This document shows positions 1-6,185 of a stretch of 6,185 nt of DNA, piece by piece (positions within the stretch are counted from its first letter, which is position 1; each line of letters opens with the position of its first letter). The notes under the pieces were generated by a model. That model had not been told where the DNA came from. It saw only the letters and a list, made by a program, of their open reading frames with translations, and searched no databases. Made by a program: the position numbers and the translations under genes. Location of the stretch: the IMG/VR virus record IMGVR_UViG_3300045988_042857, positions 1 through 6,185 of that record, one strand, 5' to 3'. The stretch comes from a virus.

Positions 1-55
1 AACACGGCCTATCAAAGGGCCGTAGAGGACATGAAAAAAGCAGGCCTTAATCCTA
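1..55. repeat. Terminal redundancy copy 1 (assembly overlap of a circular molecule)
   Basis: AACACGGCCTATCAAAGGGCCGTAGAGGACATGAAAAAAGCAGGCCTTAATCCTA is identical to 6131-6185. Confidence 0.97.
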
Positions 56-447
56 TACTTGCATTCCAAAACGGCGGCGCAAGCACGCCGGGAGGTAGCG
101 CAGGAACGATTTCAGGCGCAAGCATGGGCGCACCATCATCAAGTGCACTGGGAGTAAGTAGGGCATCCGGTTTCGTACCCAACTCATACTCAAGTGAAAG
201 CTGGTCACAAAGTGACTGGTACAACGCCGCACAGAGCTGGAACCAGATGTTAAGCAGTACAGGAATGACACCACTTGGATTACAAGAAACACTGTCCGAC
301 ATCGGCAAAAACACAGGCAACGCAATCAAAGACGCCATAGGAGCAGGAAGAAAAGCAGGCGGAAAATTAAGAGGAAACATAAACAGAGCCAAAGACAACG
401 TAAAAAACGGCCACGGAATCGACAACATCACAGGAAGGAAAAGATAA
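1..447 (+). CDS. VP2: DNA pilot / minor capsid protein VP2, C-terminal part (5' part of the gene is at 5714-6130 across the circular junction; full protein 287 aa)
   Basis: Frame 1 is open from position 1 (NTAYQRAVEDMKKAGLNPILAF...), the conserved microvirus pilot-protein motif. TAA stop at 445-447. The tracked start at 31 is only an internal Met. In frame with 5714-6130 (417 nt = 139 codons). Confidence 0.88.
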   Translation, partial: NTAYQRAVEDMKKAGLNPILAFQNGGASTPGGSAGTISGASMGAPSSSALGVSRASGFVPNSYSSESWSQSDWYNAAQSWNQMLSSTGMTPLGLQETLSDIGKNTGNAIKDAIGAGRKAGGKLRGNINRAKDNVKNGHGIDNITGRKR

Positions 448-450
448 AAA

Positions 451-1470
451 ATGAGCTGTTATAATCCATTAATCCGGATATACAGCCCAGACGACAAAGA
501 AATTACCGGGCAAGTGTATTCACTTGCCCGGTTTTCTGAAAGAATGGGCAAAAAACTGAGATATGAAGATTTGATGTATAACCCACGAGTCATGTTAATA
601 CCATGCGGGCAATGCATCGGATGTAGAATAAAGCAAAGAGAGGACTGGACAACAAGAATTGAGCTAGAGGCAAGACAATGGCCGAAAGAGCAGGTGTGGT
701 TTATCACACTGACATATGATGATGAACATGTTCCAGGAATGATACTCAAAACAGGTGAATTATTAAGAAAAGCGCAATATGTATGGAAACCAGGCGAAAA
801 ATCGCCGGAAAGCGTACAAACATTACTATACACAGATGTACAGAAGTTCTTAAAAAGGCTCAGAAAAGCGTACAAGAAGCAACTAAGGTTTTTCTGTGCG
901 GGAGAATACGGAGAACAAACGGCAAGACCACACTACCATATGATACTATACGGATGGGAACCAACTGACCTGAAACAGCTATATAAAATCCATCACAACG
1001 GGTATTATACAAGCGAATGGCTAGAAAAGCTGTGGGGAAACGGTCAAATTCAAATAGCACAAGCAGTACCAGAAACATATAGATATGTTGCAGGATATGT
1101 GACAAAAAAAATGTACGAAATTGACGACCAAAAAGCAAACGAATACCATAAACTAGGACAGCAAAAGCCATTTGCGTGTATGTCGCTCAAGCCGGGGTTA
1201 GGCGATTCGTATTATCAAGAACACAAAGAGGAGATATGGCGACAAGGGTATATACAGTGCACCAATGGAAAGCAAGCACAGATACCGCGATATTATGAAA
1301 AGATGATGGAGAAGGAAAACCCAGAAAGGCTATGGAGAATCAAGCAGAACAGGCAGAGGAAAGCCATAGAGCAAAAAAGACTGCAGTTAGAAGGACAAGA
1401 CTACAAAACACAGTTGGAAGCAAAAGAGCGTGTTACCAAAAAGCAAACGAAAAAGCGCGGCGTGCTCTAA
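451..1470 (+). CDS. VP4: Replication initiation protein VP4 (HUH rolling-circle endonuclease, Microviridae Rep)
   Basis: 339 aa. Carries the CxxCxxCR motif PCGQCIGCR (aa 51-59). HUH motif I is FITLTY (aa 84-89, nt 700-717). Motif II is HYHMILY (aa 161-167, nt 931-951). Motif III with catalytic Tyr is YVAGYVTKK (aa 212-220, nt 1084-1110). SD AGGAAGGA lies about 10 nt upstream of the ATG. Confidence 0.95.
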   Translation: MSCYNPLIRIYSPDDKEITGQVYSLARFSERMGKKLRYEDLMYNPRVMLIPCGQCIGCRIKQREDWTTRIELEARQWPKEQVWFITLTYDDEHVPGMILKTGELLRKAQYVWKPGEKSPESVQTLLYTDVQKFLKRLRKAYKKQLRFFCAGEYGEQTARPHYHMILYGWEPTDLKQLYKIHHNGYYTSEWLEKLWGNGQIQIAQAVPETYRYVAGYVTKKMYEIDDQKANEYHKLGQQKPFACMSLKPGLGDSYYQEHKEEIWRQGYIQCTNGKQAQIPRYYEKMMEKENPERLWRIKQNRQRKAIEQKRLQLEGQDYKTQLEAKERVTKKQTKKRGVL

Positions 1471-1482
1471 TTGGTGTCACCT

Positions 1483-1519
1483 AGCCCAGTACCTATCAAG
1501 TAAGGTACTGGGCTTTATT
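1483..1519 (+). terminator. Rho-independent terminator-like hairpin downstream of rep
   Basis: Perfect 12-bp stem AGCCCAGTACCT (1483-1494) / AGGTACTGGGCT (1503-1514) with the 8-nt loop ATCAAGTA, followed by TTATT. It begins 13 nt after the rep stop. Confidence 0.7.
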
Positions 1520-1563
1520 CGCGCACACGCGCACGCGTAGACGCGCGCACACGCGCACGTGTA
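1520..1563. repeat. Duplicated alternating pyrimidine-purine (CG/CA) tract, Z-DNA-prone
   Basis: CGCGCACACGCGCACGCGTA (1520-1539) and CGCGCACACGCGCACGTGTA (1544-1563) are 19/20 identical, with the first 16 nt exact. The tracts of perfect Y-R alternation are 1520-1539 (20 nt) and 1542-1563 (22 nt), separated only by GA. The element is very GC-rich in an otherwise A-rich genome. Confidence 0.85.
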
Positions 1564-1601
1564 ATATTATATAACTTGTTGTAGACGTAGTAGTAGAATA
1601 C

Positions 1602-1764
1602 GTGGAAAAGTTGAAAACAGATAAATTTGAACGTTAGAACGTTAGAAAAAGGTAAAAAAGAGCGTTGAAAGATTTGTTGAAAAAATGTTGAAACGTTGAA
1701 ATACTCTGTTGTGCTAAAGTTTAACAATGTTAAAAAGTTGAAAAGTCTGTGGAAACTGTTGAAA
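1602..1764 (+). repeat. Iteron-like array of GTTGAAA heptamers
   Basis: Exact GTTGAAA at 1610, 1664, 1676, 1687, 1695, 1737 and 1758. Degenerate GTKRAAA copies are GTGGAAA at 1602 and 1749, GTTAGAA at 1633 and 1641, and GTTAAAA at 1729. All copies share one orientation. Central spacings are 12, 11 and 8 nt, and 21 nt between the last two. Confidence 0.85.
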
Positions 1765-1794
1765 GAACGGCCAATAAAGCAGGGTGAGCAGTAG

Positions 1795-1885
1795 CGGCAA
1801 AGTCTGACGGAGCGCACCGACAGTCTGACCGGCTTTGCCGGTCTTATCAAAAAGAGCGCCTGCGGGCGAGAGTCTAACGGCGCTC
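1795..1885 (+). promoter_or_regulatory. Cluster of GC-rich stem-loops with three AGTCTRAC(C)GG direct repeats; candidate single-strand (complementary-strand) origin or regulatory structure
   Basis: Hairpin 1804-1823 is CTGaCGG/CCGaCAG. Hairpin 1827-1843 is GACCGGC-TTT-GCCGGTC. Hairpin 1854-1885 is GAGCGCC/GGCGCTC with an 18-nt loop. An alternative 8-bp long-range stem pairs 1795-1802 (CGGCAAAG) with 1833-1840 (CTTTGCCG) and competes with the second hairpin. The direct repeats are at 1801, 1822 and 1871. Confidence 0.55.
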
Positions 1886-1928
1886 CTATCCTAGGGAAAC
1901 AGGAATATATCCTATTTTATAAAATAAC

Positions 1929-1957
1929 TTGCAATAACTTGCAATAAGTGGTATAAT
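1929..1957 (+). promoter_or_regulatory. Sigma70/sigmaA-type promoter P1 (extended -10) for the accessory gene module
   Basis: TTGCAA (1929-1934), a 17-nt spacer, then TATAAT (1952-1957) preceded by TGG (TGn extended -10). The -35 lies in a tandem ATAACTTGCA duplication. It is followed by SD GAAAGGAAGG and the ATG at 1985. Confidence 0.7.
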
Positions 1958-1984
1958 AGAATCACAGAAAGGAAGGTGCTCAGA

Positions 1985-2146
1985 ATGACAATAAAGAGCT
2001 ACAGAATCGAAATGATAAACACAAAAACTGGTAAAAAGGAAGTCCGGCACACGCTGGCAGAAAGTAAAAAACTTGCAAAGTGTCTTATCTGGACAAAAAA
2101 AGATATTATAAGTCAGTGGAAAATAAAAAAAGTAGAAGAAGACTAA
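1985..2146 (+). CDS. Hypothetical small lysine-rich protein (53 aa)
   Basis: Not in the supplied track because it is short. ATG 1985 lies 8 nt after SD AAAGGAAGG (1968-1976) and just downstream of P1. Translation is MTIKSYRIEMINTKTGKKEVRHTLAESKKLAKCLIWTKKDIISQWKIKKVEED, with TAA at 2144-2146. The next gene starts 3 nt later. Confidence 0.6.
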   Translation: MTIKSYRIEMINTKTGKKEVRHTLAESKKLAKCLIWTKKDIISQWKIKKVEED

Positions 2147-2149
2147 ACA

Positions 2150-2359
2150 ATGAAAACTGCAAGATTAACCAAAAACCAGTTGACGAAACTAAAAGAAAAC
2201 GGTAGATTGTGGGGCAGGAAATACTATTACGAAATGGAATTACCCGGAATCGTAAAGTACCACGAAATCTATTACACCGACAATGACCAAAGCAAAAGAC
2301 TCATGAATGATGAGTATGCAAAACACAACAATCTTTGGGAATATAGAAAAATCAATTGA
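2150..2359 (+). CDS. Hypothetical protein (69 aa)
   Basis: The ORF is tightly packed after the previous one, on the same strand as all phage genes. Only a weak SD (GAAGAAG) is present and I recognise no motif. Confidence 0.55.
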   Translation: MKTARLTKNQLTKLKENGRLWGRKYYYEMELPGIVKYHEIYYTDNDQSKRLMNDEYAKHNNLWEYRKIN

Positions 2360-2384
2360 CAACCGGAAATTTTTTTTGTATAAT
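2356..2384 (+). promoter_or_regulatory. Perfect-consensus sigma70/sigmaA promoter P2 immediately upstream of the peptidase gene
   Basis: TTGACA (2356-2361), a 17-nt spacer containing a T8 run (2370-2377), then TATAAT (2379-2384). The -35 overlaps the TGA stop of the upstream ORF. Confidence 0.75.
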
Positions 2385-2405
2385 ACGAACAAAGGAGAAA
2401 AGGAG

Positions 2406-2795
2406 ATGCAGACAATATATGTTGAGACGTATCCCGGGACACTATTAGGCGCAGAACATTTCACAGGAAAAGAGTTTAGATGTAAGGACGGAACAGAAGA
2501 ATTCCTATTCTCTCCGAACTTAATAGAAGTACTGGAATTAATCCGGGAAAAGTTAAAAGCGCCTGTAATAATCAACAGTGGATACAGAACACCGGAATGG
2601 AATAGAAAAGTAGGAGGTGCAAAATGTAGTTATCACATGAAAGGAATGGCAGCTGATATAGTGGTCAAGGGACACACGCCAAAAGAAGTGGCAAAAATTG
2701 CGAACGAAATCATGAAAAACTACGGCGGGGTTATACGCTACACAAATTTTGTTCACGTAGACGTTCGTGAAAAATACTACAGAAAGGGGGTATAA
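2406..2795 (+). CDS. Zinc metallopeptidase, peptidase M15 family (PF08291/YcbK-like D-Ala-D-Ala carboxypeptidase fold); putative peptidoglycan hydrolase/endolysin
   Basis: 129 aa from ATG 2406, with SD AAAGGAG at 2391-2397 and the start downstream of P2. Family signature is INSGYRTPEWNRKVGGAKCSYHMKGMAADI ... FVHVDVR. Predicted Zn ligands are H77 (nt 2634-2636), D84 and H117. No N-terminal signal peptide or TM segment is evident. Confidence 0.88.
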   Translation: MQTIYVETYPGTLLGAEHFTGKEFRCKDGTEEFLFSPNLIEVLELIREKLKAPVIINSGYRTPEWNRKVGGAKCSYHMKGMAADIVVKGHTPKEVAKIANEIMKNYGGVIRYTNFVHVDVREKYYRKGV

Positions 2796-2920
2796 ACAAT
2801 AGCTCTTATCAGCATTAAAGACGTCAAACAGGCAGTCAAAATCATGATGCAGATTCTGGAAAAGTTGGACGAAATCTACCACGCACTGCGGGACCAGCTG
2901 AACGAAAAGGAATAACAAAG

Positions 2921-3148
2921 ATGATTGCAAAATCATGGAACATCAGGGACCAGACCGAAAGAAGCTTATCAGAATTGCTTGAAAAGAAATATAAAGAAGT
3001 CGAGAACGATTACAAGCTCCTCCGAAAGATAAGCGAAATCGAGACCGCAAAAAAGATGATAGATGAAATTTGGCAATGCAAAAATTTTATCAACGCTATC
3101 GAGTTGGAGCTAATCAAGAGAGGATTCTACAATGGGACGTCATCGTAA
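2921..3148 (+). CDS. Hypothetical protein (75 aa), predicted helical/coiled-coil, charged
   Basis: ORF with an AAAGGA SD-like element upstream. No alternative start occurs upstream in frame. It overlaps the next gene by 17 nt. Confidence 0.55.
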   Translation: MIAKSWNIRDQTERSLSELLEKKYKEVENDYKLLRKISEIETAKKMIDEIWQCKNFINAIELELIKRGFYNGTSS

Positions 3149-3254
3149 AGTCATGCGTGGCGGCAAAGACAAAAAAATGTTTAACGTAACCGCGCGAAAA
3201 ACAAAAAGCATCAATTTAAGTCAGAAACCGATGAGAGGCGGCATCAGACTGTGA
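3132..3254 (+). CDS. Small highly basic DNA-binding/packaging protein (phiX174 J / gokushovirus ORF8 analogue), 40 aa
   Basis: Not in the track because it is short. Translation is MGRHRKVMRGGKDKKMFNVTARKTKSINLSQKPMRGGIRL, with 13 of 40 residues Arg or Lys. The C-terminal RGGIRL resembles the RGGIRF-type ending I recall for chlamydiaphage ORF8. SD GAGAGGA lies about 8 nt upstream. TGA at 3252-3254. Confidence 0.65.
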   Translation: MGRHRKVMRGGKDKKMFNVTARKTKSINLSQKPMRGGIRL

Positions 3255-3340
3255 CGTTACTCGCAACAGCAGAAGCATATATGTACATCTGCATTGGAAC
3301 GGCAGCAATTTTAATCGCAATAGAAATCTTAACAAAATAA
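3251..3340 (+). CDS. Possible hydrophobic mini-protein (29 aa from GTG 3251, or 19 aa from ATG 3281); single predicted TM helix
   Basis: Translation is (M)TLLATAEAYMYICIGTAAILIAIEILTK. GTG 3251 overlaps the TGA of the preceding gene (GTGA coupling arrangement). It fills an otherwise non-coding 97-nt gap. Only a weak or distant SD (GAGAGG, 3233-3238) is present. Confidence 0.3.
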   Translation: MTLLATAEAYMYICIGTAAILIAIEILTK

Positions 3341-3351
3341 GAGGAAAAAAA

Positions 3352-3591
3352 ATGAAACATCTGTACTATGGTATCTACGACAACGTAGCGAAGTGCTACG
3401 CATGGGTAGGCGAAAACAAAAGCAACGAGACGTTTGCACGGATGTGCAACGTAATGCAGAAGGACAAGAACACGTTCATCGGACAATCCCCGGCCGATTA
3501 CGTGGGCTACAAGCTGGCACAGTTTGAGGACGAAACAGGCGAATTCCATAACGACAAGGAAAAGGTATGGGAGGGTAAGCCACATGAATAA
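3352..3591 (+). CDS. Conserved microvirus nonstructural protein, VP5-like (79 aa)
   Basis: A strong SD (AAGAGGA) sits upstream. The pattern IYDNVA...F.....N.ETFARM......N.......PADY.GYKLAQFEDETGEF matches the YD..A / A.R.F / P.D..L..LG.FD..TGE pattern I associate with small microvirus nonstructural (VP5) proteins. The gene sits immediately upstream of the scaffold gene. Confidence 0.6.
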   Translation: MKHLYYGIYDNVAKCYAWVGENKSNETFARMCNVMQKDKNTFIGQSPADYVGYKLAQFEDETGEFHNDKEKVWEGKPHE

Positions 3592-3982
3592 GAGATATGA
3601 AGAGGGACGCAAGTCCCTCTTTTCTGCGTCAGGCGAGAAACAGCGTAAGCAGTACGTATGGGCAAAAGACAAAGAAGGCAAAGAATATCTCCAAGAAACC
3701 GAAAGCATCGACATTCAAAGCGAAATCGAGAGCTATGCGGATGAATGCGACATAAAAAACATTGTACGCAAAGCAAGTTTTGACCCTCAGTTTATGCAGA
3801 GTCTTTCACAGGGAGCACTAGACGGAGCAGAAATCGATATTACGGAATGGCCGCAGAACATTCACGAATACCACAGGATGATTTCAACAGCGCAGGCAAA
3901 CGCGCTGGCACTGCAAGAAATGCAGAAAGAAGCACCAAAAGAAGCACCGAAGGAAGGAGAAATGAAGAGTGAACAGGAATAA
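3584..3982 (+). CDS. VP3: Internal scaffolding protein VP3-like (132 aa)
   Basis: ATG 3584 lies 8 nt after the strong SD GGGAGGG (3569-3575) and overlaps the upstream stop (ATGAATAA). The protein is acidic, with the ESYADECDIKNIV motif typical of gokushovirus VP3. The C-terminal KEAPKEAPKE repeat overlaps the VP1 start. Confidence 0.6.
   Translation: MNKRYEEGRKSLFSASGEKQRKQYVWAKDKEGKEYLQETESIDIQSEIESYADECDIKNIVRKASFDPQFMQSLSQGALDGAEIDITEWPQNIHEYHRMISTAQANALALQEMQKEAPKEAPKEGEMKSEQE
3599..3625 (+). terminator. Terminator-like hairpin inside the 5' end of the VP3 coding region
   Basis: AGAGGGAC (3601-3608), GCAA tetraloop, GTCCCTCT (3613-3620), extendable by A-T and G-U pairs to 3599/3622, followed by TTTTCT. 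It begins 8 nt after the VP5-like stop. Confidence 0.45.
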
Positions 3983-5675
3983 CGAAAGACATTTTAACCA
4001 AATTCCGAAGATGAAAGCAAGCCGAACGCGGTTTAATCGAGACCAGACGATTCTAACAACGTTTGACGCGGGAAAACTGATTCCGTTTTACGTGGATGAA
4101 GTCCTACCGGGTGACACATTCAGCGTTGACACGCTGGCCATCATCCGTATGACAACACCCAAATACCCGGTGATGGACGATAGCTTTATCGACTTTTATT
4201 ACTTCTTCTGTCCTGATAGAATTCTGTGGGATAACTTCAAACATTTCATGGGCGAAGTAGAGGAAACGCCGTGGATGCCGGCAAAGAATTACACGGTGCC
4301 GCAAATCAAAGTCAATGGCACGGACGTAAAACCCGAACCGGACGAAAAGTCTATTTTGGACTACATGGGCGTACCTACGAAAATTAAAAAGCCTTTCACC
4401 ATAAACGCACTGCCTATCAGAGCATATGTAAAAATCTGGAACGAATTTTTTAGAGATGAAAACGTAGAAAACGCGGCAGTCCTGAAAAGTGACGATGCAG
4501 ACGTAACATATACCATGAGCACAGGCGAAGAAGACACCCTGGAAAAAGAGCTGCAGGAAGCAGTAACAGGGGGCAATCTCTTACCGGTAAACAAATTCCA
4601 TGATTATTTCACGAGCTGTTTACCATCTCCGCAGCGTGGGCCGGAAGTGACAATCCCGATGCTGGGCGCGGCACCGGTAAGACCATACCTCATCGGAAAC
4701 AAAGGAACGGGAATTTGGGGATACAACGTGCCTGTAACGAGCTACGGAACAGGGACCGAAAGATATGAAGGACCGCTTTACGCGGGACAAGTGACCGATG
4801 GAAAATACGCTCTAGTAACGGGAGTGGACGAAGCTTTTAAATGGCACGGAATCGAAGATGGAAAAACCGTAAACTCAGGAAATGCAGCATTTGCAGCAGA
4901 CTTAAGCAGCGTAACAGCTGCAACCATAAACCAGTTAAGGCAGGCCATCAGCGTACAACAGTACTATGAGGCGCTGGCACGTGGCGGCTCCAGGTATCGT
5001 GAACAGGTACAGGCGATTTGGGACGTTATCATTTCGGATAAAACCGTACAAGTGCCTGAATATCTGGGCGGTGGACGCTATCACGTCAACATTAACCAAA
5101 TCGTGCAAACCAGCGGACAACAGAAAGCAGCAGATACGCCAATCGGTGAAACCGGCGCAATGTCTGTTACACCCATCAACGAAAGTTCCTTTACAAAGTC
5201 GTTCGAAGAGCACGGTTTTATAATTGGCGTTGCATGTGTGAGACACAATCGCAGCTATCAGCAGGGCCTTGAGCGATTTTGGAGCAGACAGGACCGACTG
5301 GACTATTACGTGCCGCAGTTTGCAAATCTGGGCGAGCAGCCGGTAAAAAAGAAGGAAATCATGCTCACAGGCGATACGACCGATGATGAAACATTCGGCT
5401 ATCAGGAAGCATGGGCAGACTACCGGATGAAACCGAACCGGGTTAGTGGTCTTATGAGAAGCAACGCAGAAGGAACGTTAGATTTCTGGCACTATGCCGA
5501 CAACTACGAGAAAGTTCCTACACTGTCGCAGGAATGGATGGAAGAAGGCAAAGCGGAAATTGCAAGAACGCTAATTGAGCAGACAGAGCCGCAGTTTTTC
5601 GGAGCAATCCGCGTGGCAAACAAAACCACGCGCAGAATGCCGCTTTACAGCGTGCCGGGCCTGTATAAGCTGTAA
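3969..5675 (+). CDS. VP1: Major capsid protein VP1 (Microviridae F-protein family)
   Basis: 568 aa. The N-terminus HFNQIPKMKASRTRFNRDQTILTTFDAGKLIPFYVDEVLPGDTF and the later ATINQLRQAISVQQYYEALARGGSRYREQVQAIW are hallmark microvirus capsid motifs. The GTG start at 3969 lies 9 nt after SD AAGGAAGGAG. A large variable insertion at roughly aa 230-310 is consistent with the gokushovirus surface loop. Confidence 0.97.
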   Translation: MNRNNERHFNQIPKMKASRTRFNRDQTILTTFDAGKLIPFYVDEVLPGDTFSVDTLAIIRMTTPKYPVMDDSFIDFYYFFCPDRILWDNFKHFMGEVEETPWMPAKNYTVPQIKVNGTDVKPEPDEKSILDYMGVPTKIKKPFTINALPIRAYVKIWNEFFRDENVENAAVLKSDDADVTYTMSTGEEDTLEKELQEAVTGGNLLPVNKFHDYFTSCLPSPQRGPEVTIPMLGAAPVRPYLIGNKGTGIWGYNVPVTSYGTGTERYEGPLYAGQVTDGKYALVTGVDEAFKWHGIEDGKTVNSGNAAFAADLSSVTAATINQLRQAISVQQYYEALARGGSRYREQVQAIWDVIISDKTVQVPEYLGGGRYHVNINQIVQTSGQQKAADTPIGETGAMSVTPINESSFTKSFEEHGFIIGVACVRHNRSYQQGLERFWSRQDRLDYYVPQFANLGEQPVKKKEIMLTGDTTDDETFGYQEAWADYRMKPNRVSGLMRSNAEGTLDFWHYADNYEKVPTLSQEWMEEGKAEIARTLIEQTEPQFFGAIRVANKTTRRMPLYSVPGLYKL

Positions 5676-5685
5676 GAAAGGAGGA

Positions 5686-5711
5686 AGCCCGGAGAAATCC
5701 GGGCTATTTTA
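5686..5711 (+). terminator. Hairpin between VP1 and VP2 (leaky terminator and/or SD-bridging structure)
   Basis: AGCCCGGA (5686-5693), GAAA loop, TCCGGGCT (5698-5705), then ATTTTA. It is flanked upstream by AAAGGAGGA (5677-5685) and downstream by ATG 5714. Confidence 0.6.
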
Positions 5712-5713
5712 AA

Positions 5714-6185
5714 ATGGCATTATCACTATTAGGAGCGCTGGGAACAATAGGAAAAGTGGCCGGAACAGTCGGAACCATAGGAAATGCAATAGGTTCATTA
5801 GGAAATGCATTCGGTGCATGGGGTCAGGTAGGACAGAGCCAAAGTCAGGGAGGAAGCACACAGCAGGGCGGCGGGCACAGCCAGAGCATGAGCAAATCCG
5901 GAACGAATGACGAACAAGTTATGGAATATCTGAAAGGAGCATACCAATACCAGAACGCAGAAGGAGCACGACAGAGCCAGTTCAACCAGAGTTCCATGCT
6001 GCAACAGATGGGCTATAACACTCTGGGCGCAATCATGCAGGGCGTATATAACCACATCGAAAACGCTACAGCGATGAATTTCAACAGCACAGAAGCTATG
6101 AAAAACAGAGAATGGCAGGAACACATGTCAAACACGGCCTATCAAAGGGCCGTAGAGGACATGAAAAAAGCAGGCCTTAATCCTA
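5714..6185 (+). CDS. VP2: DNA pilot / minor capsid protein VP2, N-terminal part (open at the window end; continues at 1-447)
   Basis: ATG 5714 is the first start after the in-frame stop at 5666. The N-terminus is glycine-zipper-like, MALSLLGALGTIGKVAGTVGTIGNAIGSLGNAFGAWG, followed by a Q/S/N-rich region. No stop occurs before the window end. NTAYQRAVEDMKKAGLNP at 6131-6185 duplicates 1-55. Confidence 0.88.
   Translation, partial: MALSLLGALGTIGKVAGTVGTIGNAIGSLGNAFGAWGQVGQSQSQGGSTQQGGGHSQSMSKSGTNDEQVMEYLKGAYQYQNAEGARQSQFNQSSMLQQMGYNTLGAIMQGVYNHIENATAMNFNSTEAMKNREWQEHMSNTAYQRAVEDMKKAGLNP
6131..6185. repeat. Terminal redundancy copy 2
   Basis: Identical to 1-55. Confidence 0.97.

Follow-up and report, generated by a model that had tools for sequence, protein, structure and literature searches.

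The window analysed here is the whole stretch of 6185 nucleotides (nt) of the IMG/VR virus record IMGVR_UViG_3300045988_042857 (positions 1–6185), and the gene in question encodes a 129-amino-acid (aa) protein of the Peptidase_M15_3 family that lies between the replication and structural genes, directly behind a consensus promoter. Bases 1–55 are repeated at 6131–6185, a 55-nt terminal overlap that closes the genome into a circle of 6130 nt, and the + strand carries all genes (Table 1). An earlier sequence-only reading of the window had identified it as a gokushovirus-type microvirus, which is borne out by VP1 (Phage_F), VP4, VP2, a VP3 scaffold of the Chlamydia-phage type and VP5 on a circular genome within the range of ~4.5–6.3 kb. 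The closest GenBank genomes are Microviridae from pig, rhesus and human faeces, which align along roughly one half to three quarters of its length at 77–85% nucleotide identity. Gene order is conserved in the relatives: VP4, peptidase, a 37-aa open reading frame (ORF), a 75-aa ORF, a basic ORF8-like gene, VP5, VP3, VP1 and VP2.

The peptidase and its promoter

The protein matches Pfam PF08291 (Peptidase_M15_3; E=1.1e-25; 90.3 bits, cutoff 23.2; profile positions 2–108 of 108) and PHROG 894 ‘endolysin’ (E=4e-35). Of the three families PF08291, PF13539 and PF02557 considered in the sequence-only reading, only the first is recovered: no Pfam match to PF13539, PF02557 (VanY) or, in addition, PF01427 (VanX) is listed at E <= 0.01, and a secondary match to M15_2 reaches 38 bits. 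The lysin of phage T5 belongs to one of the other M15 subfamilies. The NCBIfam equivalog NF053624 for the murein L,D-endopeptidase MepK (YcbK) is not reached either (48.3 bits vs a cutoff of 185). All motifs quoted earlier for an M15 protein with an H-D-H set are present, namely, SGYR (58–61), N66, GG (70–71), SYH (75–77), GMAADI (80–85) and FVHVD (115–119), and together with the Pfam match they confirm that assignment. The pattern H-x6-D with a C-terminal His corresponds to the putative zinc ligands H77, D84 and H117 and is accompanied by the Arg of SGYR, R61; in an alignment of 35 homologues of 61–93% identity, R61, H77, D84, H117 and D119 are invariant. In the PDB, the sequence matches a single protein, 1LBU (E=1.6e-6, profile search). 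This is the M15A prototype, the Zn D-Ala-D-Ala carboxypeptidase of Streptomyces albus G, whose SxHxxGxAxD motif aligns with that of the microvirus peptidase. The 1LBU residues opposite H77 and D84 are H154 and D161, zinc ligands of that enzyme. 1LBU shares the fold and differs in its sequence (~21% identity over the aligned part), in an extra N-terminal domain and in being a secreted bacterial enzyme.

A LAS-type fold is also recovered by structure prediction. The AlphaFold model built from the alignment has a mean predicted local distance difference test score (pLDDT) of 88, and Foldseek places it with LAS/Hedgehog-DD-peptidase structures in the PDB (1LBU, VanXYc, VanY, PLY500, ChiX and Hedgehog-N; probability 0.9–1.0) and with viral ‘Peptidase M15A’ models in BFVD (template modelling (TM) score 0.85–0.92), some of which are annotated in marine microviruses. 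The start codon at 2406 was preferred because AAGGAG lies 8 nt before the ATG, homologues of 127–130 aa begin at the same residue, and the promoter would fall inside the longer frame; a 162-aa reading from the in-frame ATG at 2307 was rejected accordingly.

The promoter upstream of the gene, TTGACA-17-TATAAT, was read correctly from the sequence: it is a 12/12 match of the sigma-70/sigma-A type, the only such site in the genome, with 21 nt separating its -10 hexamer from the ATG of the peptidase. From base composition, 0.0014 sites of this quality are expected per strand genome-wide and 3e-5 in a given 120-nt stretch. Weaker promoter-like sites total 10, no more than in shuffled sequences, so that only the 12/12 site and its position stand out. 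The TGA stop of orf69 (2357–2359) lies inside the -35 hexamer, that is, coding sequence overlaps the promoter.

Promoters in this position recur among relatives, which were selected either by their peptidase (88 genomes) or by VP1 (69 genomes) and compared with random 120-nt sequences of intergenic composition. Within the 120 nt before the peptidase start, a match of at least 10/12 is found in 51/88 peptidase-selected and 42/69 VP1-selected genomes (2.4% of random sequences), of at least 11/12 in 38/88 and 35/69 (0.14%) and of 12/12 in 10/88 and 5/69 (none in 5000 random trials). The best + strand match of the whole genome falls inside this stretch in 45/88 and 41/69 genomes, respectively; since 120 nt amount to ~2% of the genome, this placement is far above chance. 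Most of the upstream sites in relatives end 19–28 nt before the ATG, leaving a short leader with a Shine-Dalgarno (SD) sequence, and an SD-like motif of at least 4 nt precedes the chosen start in 66 of the 69 VP1-selected relatives. The 12/12 promoter is identical in the contigs L100 and L101 and is an 11/12 match in L097. From lineage to lineage, hexamers, spacers and flanks vary. The link between promoter and peptidase is thus frequent, not obligatory.

In three relatives (L009, ~1825–1915; L010, ~1645–1725; L011, ~1990–2072), the -35 TTGACA is located in the loop of a GC-rich hairpin, either CCCAGGG-TTGACAG-CCCTGGG or GACCGGT-TGACA-ACCGGTC, and the 5' leader of the peptidase contains a further conserved hairpin, CCGCGCTTCGCGCGG. 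This arrangement may represent an overlap of terminator and promoter or a regulatory structure.

Table 1. Features of the window (positions of the 6185-nt stretch)
Feature	Position	Strand	Remarks
VP4 replication initiator protein	451–1470	+	
Terminator-like perfect 12-bp hairpin followed by TTTATTC	1483–1514	+	After VP4; -24 kcal/mol; probable end of long transcript
Non-coding region, ~0.5 kb	1471–1975		Between VP4 and orf53
Mobile cassette, ~1 kb	1770–2796	+	End of non-coding region, second promoter, orf53, orf69, 12/12 promoter and peptidase
Second promoter-like site, TTGCAA-17-TATAAT	1929–1957	+	10/12, TG extension; ahead of orf53/orf69; -35 from tandem AATAACTTGC repeat
orf53, small ORF of unknown function	1985–2146	+	Cassette member; 87% identical in L097; no family match
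orf69, small ORF of unknown function	2150–2359	+	Cassette member; 84% identical in L097, 69% in L098 and L099
Sigma-70/sigma-A-type promoter, TTGACA-17-TATAAT	2356–2384	+	12/12 match
Shine-Dalgarno sequence AAGGAG	2392–2397	+	8 nt 5' of ATG 2406; read from sequence
Peptidase_M15_3 zinc peptidase, 129 aa	2406–2795	+	Single catalytic domain
Homologue of conserved 37–38-aa ORF	2796–2915	+	Directly 3' of peptidase; ATA at 2799 instead of ATG
Conserved 75-aa ORF of unknown function	2921–3148	+	
ORF8-like protein, 40 aa, highly basic	3132–3254	+	phrog_10695
Hydrophobic 29-aa ORF	3251–3340	+	GTG start (VTLLATAEAYMYICIGTAAILIAIEILTK)
VP5	3352–3591	+	Structural gene
VP3 scaffold (Chlamy_scaf)	3584–3982	+	Structural gene
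VP1 capsid	3969–5675	+	Phage_F, E=3e-136
Terminator-like hairpin followed by TATTTT, probably partial	5686–5710	+	After VP1; -16.9 kcal/mol
VP2 pilot protein	5714 across junction to 447	+	

Distribution, exchange and ancestry

A protein database search with the peptidase returned 814 clusters at E<=1e-10. The best 120 homologues (61–93% identity) are all found on contigs of at most ~6.1 kb, except for one of 11.2 kb (L013, 11190 nt, from JGI), a head-to-tail dimer of a 5.5-kb microvirus genome with a 69% identical peptidase; the dimer could be either a product of circular-genome assembly or a replicative concatemer. In IMG/VR, at least 546 viral contigs contain a relative of the peptidase. Among 80 IMG/VR contigs picked by VP1 similarity alone (71–83% identity), 77 carry the gene, including all 73 of those of at least 5.3 kb, and therefore the peptidase is a core gene of this gut gokushovirus-like clade and not a sporadic or recent pickup. 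In the sequence-only reading, M15-like genes had been described as sporadic in microviruses, which does not hold for this clade. With dN/dS (the ratio of nonsynonymous to synonymous substitution rates) of 0.08–0.10 against three relatives, the gene is under strong purifying selection. No microvirus peptidase in GenBank exceeds 67% identity to this protein, and a metagenomic one reaches 93%.

At the level of the family, an M15 gene in a microvirus is also less unusual than that reading had supposed. Roux et al. (2012; PMC3394797, PLoS One 7:e40418) described PF08291 peptidases in 11 microviruses associated with humans, including 5 Gokushovirinae, found M15_3 peptidases in both gut Gokushovirinae and Alpavirinae, showed horizontal transfer and located homologues in holin-endolysin cassettes of Firmicutes prophages. 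An endolysin role, with the wall dissolved at the end of infection, was proposed in the same study, and Gram-positive hosts were considered as a speculation. ‘Horizontally acquired bacterial peptidases’ were mentioned for gokushoviruses by Kirchberger and Ochman (2020), peptidases were counted among lysis-type accessory genes by Kirchberger et al. (2022; mBio 13:e00588-22), and a 2024 roseophage study reported M15 metallopeptidase genes in 5/6 cultured roseobacter microviruses. GenBank relatives are likewise already annotated as ‘peptidase M15’ or ‘similar to peptidase’. The gut peptidases of Roux et al. and those of the pig, rhesus and human faecal genomes (KX513868, KX513877 and MG945xxx) belong to the same Pfam family as the one studied here and share with it the position between VP4 and VP5, the inferred horizontal origin and endolysin role and the affinity to Firmicutes homologues, whereas here two extra small ORFs and a perfect promoter precede the gene. 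The present additions are modest: the peptidase is a core gene whose consensus promoter recurs, and the cassette that distant microviruses have exchanged is delimited precisely.

The cassette is delimited by comparison with L097. Its proteins are closely similar to those of the present genome for the peptidase (93% identity), orf53 (87%) and orf69 (84%), but not for VP1 (41%) and VP4 (39%). At the nucleotide level, the common block comprises 1770–1944 (93%) and 2067–2796 (91%), its right boundary being the stop codon of the peptidase. Conversely, L003, L005 and L007 are closely related in the backbone (VP1 81–82%, VP4 90–94% identical), yet their peptidase is only ~50% identical. Because L097 shares the cassette and not the backbone, whereas L003, L005 and L007 share the backbone and not the peptidase allele, the promoter, the two small ORFs and the peptidase have moved together between distant microviruses. 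Exchange of a peptidase segment between microvirus families by recombination is known (Kirchberger, Martinez and Ochman 2022; mBio 13:e00588-22): MG945328 and MG945336 are 21% identical in VP1 but 74% in the peptidase, and the exchanged module, of ~0.7–1 kb, is similar in size. The block described here, with 91–93% nucleotide identity vs 41% VP1 protein identity, extends that observation modestly, in that it is bounded to the base and includes the promoter and two upstream ORFs.

The two upstream ORFs differ in composition from the rest of the genome (GC content 0.33–0.35 vs 0.40–0.49) and are found in only a few relatives, always alongside this peptidase allele; they may be accessory genes that arrived with the cassette. 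Neither orf53 nor orf69 has a match in Pfam, PHROGs or NCBIfam, and orf69 also lacks a tblastn match in the phage collection.

In cellular genomes, searched with one genome per bacterial species, the best homologues are 43–50% identical and almost all from Clostridia (Alkaliphilus, Lachnospiraceae, Ruminococcaceae and Oscillospiraceae). Several are proteins of 216–245 aa that combine M15_3 with PG_binding_1 and are directly followed by a Phage_holin_4_1 or Phage_holin_1 gene, a classic endolysin-holin arrangement. In these prophage cassettes (L019, L025, L026, L029 and L031) all catalytic residues are kept; unlike their products, the microvirus peptidase has neither a C-terminal PG_binding_1 domain nor an adjacent gene of either holin family. 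Single-domain M15 endolysins of tailed phages infecting Gram-negative bacteria, among which the K1E ‘myramoyl peptidase’ named in the annotation of Yersinia phage phiR1-37 is counted, are alike in size (~130–140 aa) and 40–47% identical. The ‘endolysin’ of Vibrio phage D478 (47% identity, 103 bits) belongs here; it differs in having a holin nearby, and the genomes of these phages are unlike that of a microvirus in type and size. Collectively, the domain architectures and gene neighbourhoods provide good support for an origin of the peptidase in a tailed-(pro)phage endolysin whose catalytic domain was retained and whose wall-binding domain and holin were lost. Horizontal acquisition of an endolysin, proposed earlier, and a muralytic role are reasonable readings of these relationships. 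Neither donor nor host is named here, because the margin between the Clostridia homologues (103–114 bits) and the Vibrio phage endolysin (103 bits) is too small over ~110 residues. Moreover, no microvirus VP1 or VP4 was found at 79 bacterial loci with peptidase homologues, apart from a free 5.7-kb contig in a Bacteroides metagenome-assembled genome (MAG), and with no integrated copies among these loci the host cannot be assigned from prophages.

The expression signals provide a further hint: the consensus promoter and the SD sequence point to a host with sigma-70/sigma-A and Shine-Dalgarno expression, possibly one of the Clostridia. A consensus promoter of this type with a strong SD fits Firmicutes or Proteobacteria better than Bacteroidota. 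The free contig (L017, CAVKUS010000079.1, 5739 nt) is a complete microvirus genome with a 55-nt terminal repeat and a 63% identical peptidase, binned in the MAG ‘Bacteroides sp. CAG:545’; the binning could be an artefact or a host hint, at odds with the Clostridia affinity of the peptidase.

Release of progeny and competing explanations

We consider it probable, at roughly 65%, that the product is a single-domain zinc-dependent peptidoglycan peptidase of the M15A/Peptidase_M15_3 type with a LAS fold, and that this putative enzyme, expressed with the capsid proteins from the main promoter, degrades the wall to release progeny. According to this scheme, the promoter would start an mRNA with a short leader at ~2391, the peptidase would be the first, well-translated cistron of the main polycistronic transcript, and transcription would continue across the small ORFs and then VP5, VP3 and VP1, as far as the hairpins that follow VP1 and VP4. 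The enzyme would build up in the cytoplasm alongside the capsid proteins and finally cut the peptide part of murein, upon which the cell would burst and the progeny be released. Passage through the membrane, and hence the timing of lysis, would depend on a non-holin event, as no holin, signal peptide or SAR (signal-arrest-release) domain is recognisable.

The transcriptional part of this scheme can be read in two ways. The 12/12 site might serve the peptidase alone, as a ‘moron’-like unit apart from structural transcription; such a dedicated promoter, favoured in the sequence-only reading, would suit a promoter and gene that move as a cassette ending at the peptidase stop codon, and another promoter-like site is available upstream. 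However, no hairpin with a T-run was found 3' of the peptidase, nor any terminator-like structure between 2795 and VP5, and the downstream genes are tightly packed or overlapping. In many relatives, moreover, the upstream site is the only one of at least 11/12 in the genome, which would leave the capsid genes without a comparable promoter. A promoter restricted to the peptidase is thus unlikely and too narrow a description. Given the missing terminator and the frequent lack of any other strong site, the promoter is most likely that of the entire structural operon, in which the peptidase would be the first cistron.

Several observations weigh against a wall-degrading enzyme that acts at the end of infection. 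A lysis system is incomplete if its endolysin stays in the cytoplasm and has no way to the wall. All + strand ORFs (18–199 aa in 13 genomes; 20–160 aa in the sets of 88 and 69) were scanned for a 17-residue hydrophobic window, and a small hydrophobic ORF was found in 0/12 of the relatives compared first, in 9/88 peptidase-selected relatives, at varying positions, and in 1/69 VP1-selected ones. The structural matches in the PDB are modest in value (E ~3e-3, TM ~0.5). The genomes behind the promoter statistics are related, and the counts are not independent events; in ~40% of the relatives, the strong promoter is missing from the position just before the gene, among them L098 and L099 with their 88% identical peptidase. 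Finally, we found no microvirus M15 peptidase in the literature that had been tested by biochemical or genetic means.

The absence of a signal peptide, pointed out in the sequence-only reading, is confirmed by the lack of an N-terminal hydrophobic segment, and no SAR-like segment was found at the N-terminus of the peptidase. By contrast, the canonical enzymatic lysis which that reading took to be implied does not follow: of a canonical holin-endolysin system, the muralytic-type enzyme is recognisable in the sequence, and the holin or export signal is not. Nor do the + strand ORFs of the genome and its relatives include a conserved overprinted membrane protein with an N-terminal transmembrane helix, such as protein E of phiX174. 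E and other amurins perform the same job, the exit of a small phage without a full lysis cassette, but E is an overprinted membrane protein that inhibits MraY, whereas the peptidase is a soluble predicted hydrolase.

The holin would be irrelevant for an enzyme that acts from outside. The peptidase could reside in or on the virion, or be released with the pilot protein, and open peptidoglycan locally at infection, with no part in lysis at its end. Indeed, BFVD contains the same fold in large virion proteins of tailed phages (Gp5 with an OB-fold; ‘cell wall hydrolase’ of 900–1200 aa), and should the host be Gram-positive, which the Clostridia affinity hints at, a particle without a tail would have to be helped through a thick wall. 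On the other hand, the closest homologues are stand-alone endolysins beside holins and not virion modules, and the gene, located among non-structural small ORFs, is neither fused to nor overlapping with VP1, VP2 or VP3. No microvirus is known to package an enzyme, judging from the structures of phiX174, Chp2 and SpV4. An entry function is therefore very unlikely. We regard as even less probable that the peptidase is an enzymatic ‘amurin’, a VanX/VanXY-like enzyme that destroys wall precursors (D-Ala-D-Ala or UDP-MurNAc-peptide) in the cytoplasm, so that growing cells lyse with no need for a holin. The logic would be that of phiX174 E, Qbeta A2 and LysM, implemented by catalysis, and would account for the missing signal peptide and conserved holin; VanX and VanXYc, cytoplasmic dipeptidases and pentapeptidases found among the structural matches, also have the LAS fold, and phiX174-type microviruses are established to lyse their hosts by blocking wall synthesis (Roux et al. 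2012, discussion; PMC3394797). The missing Pfam matches to VanX and VanY speak against it, as do the nearest relatives (46–50% identity), which have peptidoglycan-binding domains and holins and would therefore act on assembled murein; the sequence of the peptidase itself does not discriminate between the substrates. As for an assembly artefact, whether a chimera or a piece of bacterial or tailed-phage DNA wrongly joined to a microvirus contig, only the general risk of metagenomic assemblies can be cited in favour, and the probability is close to nil: >150 independent microvirus contigs and GenBank genomes have the same gene in the same place, the identical gene was assembled with the flanking orf69 upstream in L100 and L101 and with orf75 downstream in L100, and the genome closes as a circle.

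Returning to release by the peptidase at the end of infection, how the enzyme would reach murein admits several candidates. The only small hydrophobic + strand ORF of the genome, that of 29 aa, is located in the spacer between the ORF8-like gene and VP5, which at 97 nt is the longest among 130 relatives (median 16 nt). It has no significant homologue, with a partial similarity only in L183 (13 aa, E ~0.1). Owing to this unusual spacer and the lack of homologues, it was rejected as a conserved holin partner; it is a weak candidate for a membrane-lesion partner and could equally be a small membrane peptide or a mere insertion. The conserved 37-aa ORF, also considered as a membrane partner, is amphipathic and not membrane-spanning, and matches no family. 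At the N-terminus of VP2 (5714–5830), a glycine-zipper-like run, MALSLLGALGTIGKVAGTVGTIGNAIGSLGNAFGAWG, with Gly every 3–4 residues suggests a membrane-inserting helix and, more speculatively, a route for membrane damage from within.

A whole clade with a soluble endolysin-type peptidase but with no holin, signal sequence or conserved membrane ORF might even point to an undescribed lysis route, an idea that we consider distinctly unlikely at present. Possible forms of such a route are the catalytic attack on cytoplasmic wall precursors, or export with the help of a structural protein (the VP2 glycine-zipper N-terminus) or of the 37-aa and 75-aa neighbours. If it existed, the promoter-plus-peptidase block would be a self-sufficient lysis cassette moving between distant microviruses.

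Gokushoviruses are among the most abundant phages of the mammalian gut, and their lysis mechanism is not established. The present clade offers a clean case for this question, as it pairs a well-conserved muralytic-type enzyme, with predicted strong expression, with no visible means to reach the wall. The universal presence of the gene, its consensus promoter and SD, and the movement of a ~1-kb cassette are useful for designing tests, and a small stand-alone enzyme of this kind might serve as a compact lysin, if active.

Further features of the genome

Directly behind the peptidase, where nearly all relatives have the 37–38-aa ORF, its homologue has lost the ATG: it continues in frame behind the TAA of the peptidase, and its first ATG is located at 2844. 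L100 and L101, which were assembled independently, have the same ATG-less sequence, so that a sequencing error is excluded. It might be explained by a non-canonical start, by a shortened product or by read-through of the stop codon.

An Rfam scan of the genome returned nothing meaningful (one match, at E=0.88). The non-coding region after VP4 displays a dense repeat architecture. GTTGAAA occurs in 9 copies in the genome, 7 of them at 1610–1764, compared with 1.25 copies expected genome-wide, and at least 9 copies were reached in 0/200 shuffles. In addition, a CGCGCACACGCGCAC-type repeat is found at 1520–1563, and an inverted-repeat-rich segment at 1795–1840 folds better than shuffled sequences (z=-2.4). 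The region may be an origin or a regulatory region. By eye, similar GC-rich and TTGAAA-type repeats are present in a relative (L014, 1620–1870).

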